Notes under the pieces: generated by a model
Seen by the model: only the letters and a program-made list of their open reading frames with translations
Told to the model about the DNA's origin: nothing
The model's database searches: none
Shown: positions 15,401-19,517 of the stretch, piece by piece
Position numbering within the stretch: the first letter of the stretch is position 1
Layout: each line of letters opens with the position of its first letter
NCBI GenBank assembly: GCA_963749155.1
Contig: CAVVLO010000002.1
Span: 1,408,001 to 1,472,000, forward strand
Length of the DNA stretch: 64,000 bases
Source: an uncultured Armatimonadia bacterium
GTDB taxonomy: Bacteria; Armatimonadota; Zipacnadia; CAVVLO01
Direction: 5' to 3'
Made by a program: the position numbers and the translations under genes

Positions 15401-16159
15401 GCAGCCACCGCTTCAGTCGGCTTGCCCAGCTCATCGGAGAAGAAGGCCTTGCGCGCCTGACCGCCAGCCACGTGGCAATCGTGGGACTGGGCGCTGTTGG
15501 CAGCTATGCGCTGGAGGGCCTGGCCCGCTCGGGAGTAGGCCGGCTGCGCCTGGTCGACTTCGATGAAGTGCGCGAGAGCAACTTCAATCGCCAACTGCTG
15601 GCTACCGAAGCCAGTCTTGGCCTTCCCAAAGTCGAAGCCGCCACCGAGCGCGTATTGTCCATCAATCCTGACTGCCAGGTCGAACCGCTCAAGCTGTTCG
15701 TCCACGCTGAAAGCCTGCCGGCAGTGTTCGGCCAGCCCGCCGGACCTGGTGCTGGACTGCATTGATTCCTTCAGGCCCAAGGTGGAATTGCTGTCGGGGG
15801 CACTCGAAGCTGGGGTGCCGGTGGCGAGTTCGATGGGCGCGGCGCTCCGCAGCGATCCAGCGCGTGTGCATACTGGCTCGCTTTCGGCAACGAGAGTCTG
15901 TCCCCTGGCTCGCAGGCTGCGCGCCGAACTCAGAAAACGGGGTCTGCCAACCGACCTGCCCTGCGTGTGGAGTGATGAGCCTCTGGACCCATCCTATATG
16001 CGCGAGCCTGAGGAAGAAGAGGCCTCGGGTGAGTATCAGCGGGGCCGACCGCGTCGCGTGCTGGGCAGCCTGCCTACGCTGACGGGATTGTTTGGCCTTA
16101 CCCTCGCCAACCTGGCGCTGGAATTATTACTGGGCGACCTCTGGCCGGGCCGCCACTAA
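15397..16159 (+). CDS. tcdA: tRNA threonylcarbamoyladenosine dehydratase (ThiF family); frameshift near 15730
   Basis: GLGAVGS, DFDEVRESNFNRQ, DCID, SSMGAA, CPLARRLR. Confidence 0.85.
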
Positions 16160-16970
16160 TCCTGGCGAGTGAAAAACTCCACCTGGGCGTCCTCGACTGC
16201 GGCCAGTTTCGCCTCGATAATCGGGCGGAAATCAGCGTTCAATTCGTAGCCAATCCCCTTGCGCCCTGTGAGTGCCGCCGCAAGCAGGCTCGTGCCGCTG
16301 CCACAAAACGGATCGAGGATAGTCTCCCCGACGAAGCTGTACATCCTGATTAGCCTCTCGGGTAGCTCAAGTGGGAACATCGCCTGGTGCTCCGCCTGCC
16401 GGTCGGGTTGAAGCCGCCACACTCCGCGAAACCATTCGCTGCGGTGCGCCTTCGCCAGCTTGCTTGCCTCTTTCTGTTCTGCGCTGACTTTGGGGCCGCG
16501 TCCAGGTTTCTTGAACAGCAGGATATATTCGTGTTCGTAGGTTATATGCCCATCGCGCGGCCAGTAGGTAGAACCCATCCAGCTTCCGCCGCCCGTGGTT
16601 TTGGTCGTCGAGATTTTGTGCCAGATGATACTGCCCATATAGTCGAAGCCTAGCCCCGTGCAGGTGGCAATCGTGTCGGCCCCGATGGGCGCCAGGCGAT
16701 ACCGGCCGTGCTCGGTGGCGCGCAGATACTGGTCTCCGATGTTGATGGCCAGCCGGCAACCGGTGTGAAGGGCGCGATGGCACTCCTTCCATACAAGCCC
16801 AAGGTCGGAAGATAGGCTTCATAGCTCTGGCCAAAGCCTATCTGGCCTTCATCCCCATAATCCTTGATAGACCAGTAGGGGGGAGAAGTGACGATGAAGT
16901 GGACGGAGCCATCTTCAAGCTCCGGCATCCCCCGCGAGTCGGCCAGCCAGATAATATGTCGCGTGTTCAT
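16156..16970 (-). CDS. Orphan beta-class N4-C/N6-A DNA methyltransferase; frameshift near 16808
   Basis: Motif IV TSPPY at the N-terminus, H.AMFP, motif I DPFCGSGT near the C-terminus. No adjacent endonuclease. Extended -10 TGTTATAAT on the minus strand at 16981-16989. Confidence 0.88.
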
Positions 16971-17000
16971 AACCGCGAGGATTATAACAGCCAGCCGCGG

Positions 17001-17029
17001 TTTACGCTTTCAAGGGCCTTGTATATAAT
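17001..17029 (+). promoter_or_regulatory. Sigma70-type promoter of the thiC leader
   Basis: TTTACG-17bp-TATAAT. Confidence 0.7.
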
Positions 17030-17041
17030 GTAAGGCAGTCA

Positions 17042-17140
17042 GCCGCTGGGGGTGCTCCCGCAAGGGGGCTGAGAGCAAACCCTTCGCACCTGAGCCGGGC
17101 CGCAAGGCTCCCGCTGGATAATGCCAGCCAGGGAAGTGGT
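17042..17140 (+). ncRNA. TPP riboswitch aptamer (variant with an insertion)
   Basis: GGGGTGC..GCTGAGA..ACCC..ACCTGA..CTGGATAATGCCAGC..AGGGAAG; P1 GCCGCT/AGTGGT; lies directly upstream of thiC. Confidence 0.9.
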
Positions 17141-17156
17141 AAGTCCGAGTCTAACA

Positions 17157-17187
17157 GGCGCCGCTCCGCACTCTGGGCGGCGCTTTT
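17157..17187 (+). terminator. Intrinsic terminator, probable riboswitch expression platform
   Basis: GGCGCCGCTC-loop-GGGCGGCGCT followed by TTT, between the aptamer and thiC. Confidence 0.75.
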
Positions 17188-17222
17188 ACTAGTGGCCTGC
17201 TTTACGGGCAAAGGTGATTCTG

Positions 17223-18509
17223 ATGACCCAACTCGAAGCCGCGCGTAGCGGTCAGATAACAGACCAGCTCCGACAAGTGGCTGAAGCCGAAGGCCTGCAA
17301 ATTGAACAGGTTCTCGGTGTCGTGGCTACCGGTCGCGCCGTAATTCCGGCCAACTCGACCTATGCTTTACCAAGTCCTCGGGGGGTCGGCAAAGGCCTTA
17401 CTACCAAGGTAAACGCCAATATCGGCACCAGTATGCATTATCCGGACGTCGAGACTGAAGTCGAGAAGCTCAAAGCTGCTGTCGAGGCGGGCGCCGACGC
17501 CGTGATGGATCTTTCTACCGGAGGCAATCTGAGAGAGATCCGGGCGCGTATCCGCGAAGCCTGCCCGGTGCCCCTTGGCACAGTGCCCATCTACGAGGCC
17601 GCCGCTCGCGCCAAGCGCGAAGGTCAGGGCCTGATAAATATGACCGCCGACGAATTGTTCGATGTCATCGAGACCAACGGCAAGCAGGGGGTGGATTTTA
17701 TAACCGTCCATTGCGGCGTAACGCAGAATTCGGTCGACCAGTTGCGAAGGCAAGGCCGGCTGATGGATATCGTCAGTCGCGGCGGGGCCTTCCTCACCGC
17801 CTGGATGGTCGCCAACGAGGCCGAGAATCCCCTTTACGAGCAGTATGACCGTCTGCTTGAGATATCTCGCAAATACGATATGACCCTCAGCCTGGGCGAT
17901 GGGTTGCGGCCTGGGTGCCTGGCCGATGCCACTGATCGCGGCCAGATAAGCGAACTCGTCGTCCTGGGCGAACTTGTGAAGCGCGCGCGCGAAGCCGGGG
18001 TGCAGGCGATGGTCGAGGGGCCAGGTCATGTGCCACTGAGTCAGGTGCCGACAAATATCCTGCTGCAGAAATCCCTCTGCGAGGAAGCGCCCTTCTATGT
18101 GCTGGGGCCGCTGGTGACCGATGTCGCGCCTGGCTACGACCACATTGTTGGCGCAATCGGGGGCGCGCTGGCCGCCCAATATGGCGCGGATTTTCTCTGC
18201 TATGTCACCCCCGCCGAACACCTCGGCCTGCCGACCGCCGAGCATGTGCGGGAAGGCGTCATCGTTAGCCGCATCGCCGCGCATGCTGGCGACATCGCCA
18301 AAGGCCTGCCAGGGGCGCGCGACTGGGACGATGAGATGGCCCGGGCCCGTAAGGCGCTCGATTGGCCGAAGCAACTCAGCCTTGCCCTCGATGAGCCCAA
18401 GGCCCGGGCTATCTACGAGGCGCGTTCTTCCTGTGAGGAAGAGGATGTCTGCTCGATGTGCGGCGAATTCTGTGCCGTGAAGCTGATCTCGGAGGTCCTC
18501 CAGAAGTGA
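17223..18509 (+). CDS. thiC: Phosphomethylpyrimidine synthase ThiC
   Basis: [45 protein letters not shown]; riboswitch and thiL context. Confidence 0.95.
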
Positions 18510-19517
18510 ATCTCGGCGATCTGGGCGAGCTTGCGCTGGTCGAACACCTTGGTCGGTATCTGGCCGAAGAGGGCGGCCCACTGCTGCTCGGGCCAGGTCA
18601 TGATGCAGCGGTTGTCCTCCCGCTTGAGGGCAACCTGGTCTTCAAGGTAGATGCTCTGGTCGAAGGCCGGCACTTCGATTTGGCTTTCTCGACCCCCCAG
18701 CAAGTCGGTTGGCGCGCCCTGGCCAGGCCTGCAAGCGATATCGCCGCGGTTTCGGGCGCCCCGGATTATGCCCTGATAACTCTATTTGCGCCTGCCTCCT
18801 GCCCCGTAGAAGTGGTTGAGGGCCTCTACGAGGGCCTGGCAGAAGCCGCGAAGGCCTTCGGCACGAAACTGGTCGGTGGCGAGACCACCTCGGCAGAGGA
18901 ACTGGCTTTGTCGGTAGCTATCCTGGGCAGTGTCGAACCTGGCGAGTCGAAAGGGCGCTCAGGCGCGCGCGCAGGCGACAAGATATGGATAAGCGGCTTT
19001 CTCGGCGATGCGGCCGCGGGCCTTGCGATTTTGAAGGCCGGAGGCGTAACCGAGCTTGCAGCCAAATTTCTCCTTTCATCTGAAGAATCTGCCGCCCTGG
19101 CCACTTGCGTGGAACACCACCAAGCGTCCCCGCCCGCGACTCGCGCTGGGCAAGGCGCTTGGCGCCAATCCAGAAATTACCGCGATGATGGATGTGAGCG
19201 ATGGCCTGGTTATCGACTTGCACCGGCTTGCGAAGGCCAGCGGCCTCGTGGTGCGGCTTCAGCTCGAGGCTCTGCCCCTCTCCCCTGGCGCTCTCCTCGC
19301 CGCGCGGCTGCTTGGGCTTGATCCCCTGGCCCTGGCTTTGGGCGGCGGAGATGATTACGAGTTGCTAGTTTGTAGTACCCAGGACCTGCTGGATTGCGAT
19401 ATACTAAAAAAGCTGCTCCCAATCGGTCGTTTAGAGGAAACCGACGGGCTGGGTGGAAACGTATTAAGAGAGACTGGAGAGGTGCTGCCCCTTACCGGGT
19501 GGGACCACTTCGCGTAA
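18506..19517 (+). CDS. thiL: Thiamine-monophosphate kinase; frameshift near 19121
   Basis: [49 protein letters not shown] overlaps the thiC stop. Confidence 0.9.

Follow-up and report, generated by a model that had tools for sequence, protein, structure and literature searches.

A TPP-family riboswitch leader ahead of thiC-thiL with a 20-nt bulge and a reduced J5/4 junction in its pyrophosphate-sensor arm

No riboswitch class is more widespread than that of TPP, which is also a drug target. In the canonical aptamer the nucleotides G60, C77 and G78 are the conserved contacts of the pyrophosphate (PMC3764141; preprint 10.1101/2025.01.21.634073), with G78 described as the only base that touches it directly (PMC3764141). 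The preprint (10.1101/2025.01.21.634073) reports that Mg-mediated binding of TPP needs A61, C63, C77 and G78, and that thiM stops responding to thiamine in a triple mutant with G78U. U62 and U79 are reported to be solvent-exposed and to tolerate replacement (PMC2018614). Variants of the class have been mentioned as well: McCown et al. (2017, RNA 23:995, PMC5473149) state that P4-P5 mutants are present in many bacteria, citing a study in preparation by Roth et al., and report from unpublished data that in TPP variants with a mutated pyrophosphate core the binding of thiamin is roughly as good as that of TMP and TPP; ligand-changed variants of other riboswitch classes are cited in the same article. 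In the open literature we found no published account of inserts in J4/5, nor the Roth et al. study itself, beyond that mention of 2017. The variant type is mentioned in print and, as far as the accessible parts of these sources go, has never been described in detail.

The leader described here belongs to an uncultured Armatimonadia bacterium and lies in a stretch of 64,000 nt (the window), in which all positions below are counted. The preliminary description, made from the letters alone, had proposed aligning it to RF00059. This alignment (cmscan) turns out to be end to end, with all model positions 1-105 placed at 17038-17151 of the + strand; the score is 38.7 bits, with E-values of 3.1e-6 in a search of 401 nt and 7.6e-6 in a search of the whole 4.17-Mb genome. 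Since 38.7 bits is below the curated Rfam cut-off of 54.3, a default scan of the window at gathering thresholds leaves the element unreported. No other Rfam family, the HMP-PP riboswitch (thiS motif) included, matches in 16900-17300 at E-values up to 10, apart from two chance matches (SNORA76 and mir-644). In the genome-wide RF00059 search the element is the only one of TPP type in the genome. A candidate for a second one, an 18-bit match (E 0.9), was rejected: it falls inside a 359-aa ORF and is without CUGAGA.

The anatomy of the aptamer is that of the class (Table 1). P1 closes the junction of the P2/P3 and P4/P5 arms, standard pairs are found throughout all five helices, P3a is absent, and both CUGAGA and the L5 motif (A/G)UAAUG are present. 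The pyrimidine pocket GCUGAGA (17068-17074), L5, P1 and the terminator, which had been called intact, were all recovered by sequence, cmscan and folds. Downstream follow thiC and thiL, with an expression platform in between. With the canonical TPP riboswitch (RF00059; E. coli thiM, PDB 2GDI) the element shares P1-P5, CUGAGA, L5 AUAAUG, the position upstream of thiC and the terminator platform; it differs in its score, in having 20 nt for U62, in lacking G78 and P3a, and in a P4-P5 3' strand that can pair fully. We regard it as very probably a genuine TPP-family OFF switch for thiC-thiL.

Table 1. Features of the leader and of the genes downstream (positions in the window)
Feature	Position	Strand	Basis and remarks
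Promoter-like TTTACG-17 nt-TATAAT	17001-17029	+	consensus match, 10/12; start ~17036
TPP-family aptamer (THI element)	17038-17151	+	cmscan, full-length, sub-threshold
P1	17043-47/17135-39	+	CG, CG, GU, CG, UA pairs, aptamer-enforced fold
P1, extra pair	G17042-U17140 (5' strand 17042-17047, 3' strand 17135-17140)	+	aptamer-enforced fold
P2	17049-52/17080-83	+	sequence and cmscan alignment
P3, GCAA loop	17055-59/17064-68	+	sequence, cmscan, fold
Pyrimidine-sensor J3/2, CUGAGA	17069-17074	+	aligned to the model's CUGAGA
P4	CCUG 17089-92 / CAGG 17129-32	+	folds
Insert (bulge) at the U62 site, 20 nt	17093-17112	+	sequence, RNAfold
Predicted insert hairpin, GGGCC-GCAA-GGCUC	17097-17110	+	RNAfold
P5/L5, CUGG-AUAAUG-CCAG	17114-17127	+	sequence, arm CM
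P5 as extended, GCUGG-AUAAUG-CCAGC	17113-17128	+	predicted G17113-C17128 pair
P4 3' strand CAGG, then GAA, then P1 3' strand AGUGG(U)	17129-17140	+	
Intrinsic terminator, 11-bp stem	17156-17187	+	-20.0 kcal/mol
SD-like AAAGGUGA before thiC	17210-17217	+	
thiC	17223-18509	+	Pfam ThiC PF01964, 642.7 bits
thiL	18458-19517	+	TIGR01379, two frames

The pyrophosphate-sensor arm (17088-17132) reads ACCUGA-GCCGGGCCGCAAGGCUCCCG-CUGGAUAAUGCCAG-C-CAGG, letter for letter as earlier given. Between the model's CCUgAU and uAGGGA cmscan places 34 nt against 16 in the model, and about 20 extra nucleotides lie between A17093 and P5, at the site of the solvent-exposed U62 of E. coli thiM. The 20-nt insert thus noticed at first sight is there, with its span refined from 17094-17113 to 17093-17112. 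On the other strand J5/4 is the lone C17128, where the comparators have CG and one variable base; the equivalent of G78 is missing, and the claim of a J5/4 without it is upheld by both sequence and alignment. Of the pyrophosphate loop of the class (G60, C77-G78), J5/4 offers only the C.

The minimum free energy (MFE) fold of 17088-17135 (RNAfold, -20.0 kcal/mol) is composed of P4, a hairpin in the insert and a P5 of five pairs, the fifth predicted between G17113, the final base of the insert, and C17128. Among the suboptimal structures listed, the nearest that shifts the insert helix costs 0.8 kcal/mol more. As had been proposed, the insert is predicted to form a hairpin capped by GCAA; however, the CGGG..CCCG register proposed for it is absent among the 12 suboptimal structures printed, the preferred stem being 17097-101/17106-110. 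The energy of this hairpin is no better than chance for a GC-rich 21-mer: it folds at -8.1 kcal/mol where shuffled versions average -5.95 (sd 2.36), and of 2000 such shuffles 17% equal or beat it. Covariation was seen neither for the hairpin nor for the 17113-17128 pair, because the only other copy at hand is identical. The insert as a dispersed repeat is ruled out, with one match in the genome at up to 3 mismatches.

More telling than the insert, in our opinion, is that C17128 can pair with G17113 in the predicted fold and so close the pocket. The 3' strand of P4-P5, CCAGCCAGG, is paired throughout in this fold; with C17128 taken up by the last G of the insert, the strand would be fully paired and the canonical pyrophosphate pocket closed. 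P4 and P5 together make nine stacked layers in the predicted structure, which by the description of the thiM arm in the preprint (10.1101/2025.01.21.634073) appears to equal the canonical count, and L5 could still reach P3. J4/5 holds an extra G at 17094. An arm-only covariance model (CM) made from the arms of 37 relatives aligns 17114-17128, that is P5 through C77 only, at 6.9 bits; this model is gapless and penalises the insert, and its invariant CG was built in by a regular expression, so that the CG counts given below rest on separate parsing.

The insert and P3 share GCUCCCGC (two of its three copies in the window) and CCGCAAGG (two of eight) in permuted order, at 17054-17065 and 17100-17114. 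The insert may be derived from P3, and its 3' half could compete with the 5' strand of P3 for GGGGGC.

Whether the letters of the arm are genuine was examined in four public runs (X1, X2, X3 and X6) compared over 16800-17500. One of them, X2, comes from a wastewater metagenome of another study and provides a 1582-nt contig that spans 16810-17500 and differs from the window by 41 substitutions in 691 nt, without any gap. In the list of differences 16972 is followed directly by 17204, leaving none in 16973-17203 (231 nt), and 29 of them fall in the first 246 nt of thiC. The strain in X2 therefore has an identical promoter, aptamer, insert, single-C junction and terminator. Sequencing error had been considered for the missing G; this is excluded by the gapless contig of another strain, in which an independent look at the doubted base 17128/17129 finds the single C kept. 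The missing G is real, not an assembly error. An unchanged leader beside a diverged thiC argues for constraint on the leader, on the evidence of a single contig (depth 7.2) in which the 163 nt upstream are likewise little diverged (3 listed differences). In X3 a copy at least 99% identical covers 16810-17092 only, its contig ending at the start of the insert, and X1 and X6 hold merely short thiC pieces of other organisms. Among the public runs matched, no RNA run carrying the leader is listed.

The junction is conserved to a degree that makes its reduction here stand out among the matches listed. CG is found in all 41 class-level relatives (40 parsed by script, one, L036, by eye) and in 100 of 100 parsable loci listed from a species-representative genome collection, 19 further loci of that scan having been left out with no recognisable 3' arm; the comparators combined give 141 of 141.

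The insert was looked for in the same material. A CM search of 60 class-level relatives gave 41 TPP matches, none with extra bases at the insert site. A pattern scan of 79 genomes of the class and a sample of 401 genomes of the phylum returned the same arm only in the window's own copy, besides artefacts and one phylum-level locus (L241, in G408) that reads CCUGA-AGCCUGCCCUGAGU-GGGGUAAUACC, where J4/5 may have a short insert or the pattern may have caught a second CCUGA. A search of relatives' leaders for covarying inserts had been proposed; at class and phylum level none like that of the window was found. Class-level relatives do have other additions: seven loci (L029, L030, L031, L032, L034, L037 and L038) have a further hairpin on the P3 side, ahead of CUGAGA, and two (L035 and L039) a hairpin in J2/4, between P2 and P4.

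In the species-representative collection the pattern scan returned at least 119 loci, most of them artefacts in which the first ACCUGA sits in the P2/P3a strand. True J4/5 inserts are present in at least about 25 loci. The carriers comprise at least 21 metagenome-assembled genomes of Thermoleophilia/Actinomycetota (L047, L048, L051, L053, L058, L060, L062-L064, L068, L083, L094, L097, L104, L124, L137, L141, L146, L154, L155 and also L044), together with L134, L150 and L113/L119. CCUGA and P5 flank the insert, as they do in the window. In the Thermoleophilia it consists of two hairpins (34-40 nt; 20 arms aligned), and compensation is seen at four of the 20 pairs predicted (for example AU 12, GC 7 and GU 1, or CG 13, UA 5 and UG 2), and the consensus fold pairs C77 with the G after the insert; these arms resemble that of the window in having a G before P5 that can pair with C77. 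All insert carriers among the matches listed keep CG, unlike the window, the one exception being the metagenome locus L193, which has GAC. The genes they precede differ from the window's thiC too: thiT in all four Thermoleophilia tested, thiM (L134) and a gene for a thiamine-binding protein (L150).

Eight insert carriers were scored, all of them below the Rfam cut-off (among the carriers L150 has 40.7 bits, L134 37.4 and L051 35.8), so threshold-based Rfam matches would not contain them; L113, with an insert of 16 nt, is just above it at 54.8 bits. L047, L060, L064, L193 and L169 are unlisted even at E 0.001. The insert site is therefore not unique to our element; it is a recurrent place for expansion that threshold-based annotation misses.

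Altered junctions were found in metagenomes with a pattern having one base fewer between P5 and AGGGA. The scan returned 64 loci, none resembling the window's leader; no window-like arm was among them, and near-identical records may lie outside the scan. One locus, L163, retains CG and has lost the variable base. In AT-rich families UA or UU replaces CG, U62 is absent and the arm folds as a near-continuous helix (L164, L166, L174, L178, L184, L189, L197, L201, L207, L218, L224 and L226); all 12 of 12 tested lie upstream of genes for TonB-dependent receptors, and of six scored, five have 45-48 bits and L184 has 55.2. A soil-metagenome family reads CCUGA-GC...GG-AC-AGGGA, with GAC for CG and the variable base, upstream of a ThiO-like FAD oxidoreductase gene (L169, L176, L191, L194, L199, L222 and L193); in L193 this is joined to a 25-nt hairpin insert in J4/5. 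In two loci, L171 (ahead of thiC) and L184 (ahead of a TonB receptor gene), the 3' strand is fully paired and a one-base bulge is left on the 5' strand. These two fit the description of McCown et al. (2017), as far as that brief text goes, and share the closed topology of the window.

Closest to the window at the junction itself is L182, with the same CCAG-C-CAGG and no G78. It differs in having no insert, a normal AU in J4/5, a score of 56.1 bits (above 54.3) and a transporter gene downstream (ThiT), and it is a single example. Altogether, the genes downstream of 27 metagenome representatives are 12 for TonB-dependent receptors, 6 for ThiC, 4 for FAD oxidoreductases of the ThiO kind, 2 for ThiT (L182 and L183), 1 YkoE-like and 1 CytX-like, with 1 giving no match. 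Among the ThiC-linked loci L163 and L187 keep CG, and L171, L173, L175 and L196 have altered junctions; altered pockets therefore occur on biosynthetic leaders as well. Of these junction variants only L193 also combines an altered pocket with a large bulge, and most of the others control transporters, unlike the window. The element thus joins two kinds of deviation already known; it comes from a lineage without sequenced close relatives and controls de novo synthesis.

Promoter-like sites number one, against 0.5 expected in shuffled sequence. The terminator has a 9-bp GC core (17158-66/17175-83), a loop at 17167-74 and UUUU at 17184-87; a simple terminator scanner lists none at the leader because the U-tract is only four long and the scanner demands at least five T. 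When P1-P5 are enforced on the leader 17036-17195, the fold has -63.8 kcal/mol and the terminator is formed. The unconstrained MFE fold of the same leader (-68.9 kcal/mol) is instead a double antiterminator, in which 17042-55 (the 5' strands of P1 and P2) pair with 17168-81 and 17132-46 (the 3' strands of P4 and P1) pair with 17157-67. The MFE varies with the 3' end chosen: the fold of 17036-17225 has the terminator but no aptamer and, at z = -0.67, is uninformative. The mutually exclusive terminator and predicted antiterminator would be the layout expected of an OFF switch, and the gap between the two folding energies is plausibly within the reach of ligand binding.

In this assembly TIGR01379 matches thiL in two frames, with model positions 2-189 (146.5 bits) in one and 186-320 (85.7 bits) in the other, overlapping at about 19116-19126; the genome yielded no further thiL. 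The frameshift is either real or an indel error of the 7-contig assembly. ThiE is encoded on contig 1. ThiG has no convincing match in the genome, the best being partial (30.6 bits) with an internal TGA, and the thiazole branch may rely on another enzyme or on salvage. The upstream neighbours span 16156-16970 on the - strand and 15563-16159 on the + strand; noted there are a truncated-looking ORF for an N6/N4 DNA methylase (160 aa, profile positions 78-219 only), a 106-aa ORF without a family and a weak, sub-threshold match to the ThiF family (22.9 bits).

Taken together, a transcription-terminating OFF riboswitch of the TPP (THI-box) family would control thiC-thiL, with the pyrimidine-sensor arm, L5 and P1 canonical and the pyrophosphate-sensor arm rebuilt. 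In the model we propose, a 20-nt bulge with a GNRA-capped hairpin would take the place of the flipped-out U62, and CG and the variable base of J5/4 would shrink to a C that pairs with the G ending the insert. P4 and P5 would become one stack of nine layers, and the canonical Mg-pyrophosphate pocket of G60, C77 and G78 would be gone. The RNA would most likely still bind the aminopyrimidine end and discriminate little among thiamin, TMP and TPP. With ligand bound, P1 and P2 would be held and the terminator would form; without it, the 5' strands of P1 and P2 and the 3' strands of P4 and P1 would pair with both arms of the terminator, and transcription would read through. That the leader recognises thiamin compounds by their aminopyrimidine end, with relaxed discrimination at the phosphate, by analogy with the variants of McCown et al. 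(2017), is a statement for which we see about an even chance. The likeness to those variants, compared by their published description, is an altered pyrophosphate core with the rest of the aptamer intact. The specificity shift to thiamine, TMP or HMP suggested in the preliminary description is plausible in that the same short mention provides a precedent in print.

It is possible, though doubtful, that the leader is an ordinary TPP-selective riboswitch, its insert a neutral peripheral hairpin and its junction still making the Mg-pyrophosphate site from A17093, G17094 and C17095/C17096 together with C17128, a G of the 5' strand perhaps standing in for G78. The extra G of J4/5 at 17094 speaks for this, as do the solvent-exposed, replaceable U62 and U79 (PMC2018614), the inserts found at the same site, ahead of thiamine genes and with CG retained, in at least about 25 loci, and the fact that the genome, itself able to make HMP-P, has no other element of TPP type. 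However, no base but G78 is described as contacting the pyrophosphate directly (PMC3764141), the thiM triple mutant with G78U does not respond to thiamine (preprint 10.1101/2025.01.21.634073), none of the 141 comparators among the matches listed is without CG, and the MFE fold pairs C17128 away.

We consider it unlikely that the aptamer is decaying or inactive, the leader being a constitutive attenuator, or nothing, alongside a broken thiL. With thiL frameshifted in the assembly and no second copy, the operon could be decaying, and the lost key contact G78, the sub-threshold Rfam score and the want of a good ThiG would fit; yet the leader is unchanged over 231 nt in X2, where 29 listed differences fall within the first 246 nt of thiC, the remaining conserved positions, P1 and the exclusive terminator and antiterminator folds are all kept, thiC is intact (642.7 bits), and the thiL frameshift may be an error of the 7-contig assembly.

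The 20-nt bulge could also rebuild a phosphate site, and it is improbable that helix and bulge make a new recognition site by which a TPP-fold leader is re-tuned to thiamin itself or to HMP-P/HMP-PP. Least probable, and in our view very unlikely, is a closed P4-P5 whose bulge forms a new pocket selecting another compound of the pathway, such as HMP-P or HMP-PP, for feedback on ThiC: the intact pyrimidine pocket beside a rebuilt phosphate pocket, the production of HMP-P by the controlled gene's product and the ligand-changed variants of other classes cited by McCown et al. (2017) agree with it, but it has no specific support, the other families with a closed pocket carry no insert and mostly control uptake genes, and there are no relatives to show the bulge nucleotides conserved.

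Under the favoured reading, a thiamin-type sensor with relaxed phosphate discrimination, the leader joins natural variants with closed or rebuilt pockets, which reveal the extent of drift open to the fold and the ligands that it reads. As the sole thiamin sensor of its genome, controlling thiC and not uptake, it would offer a clean test of whether variants without the pocket read the whole thiamin pool. The element, the eight insert carriers scored and most of the junction variants scored lie below the Rfam cut-off, and thiamin regulation is therefore under-counted by standard annotation in several phyla.
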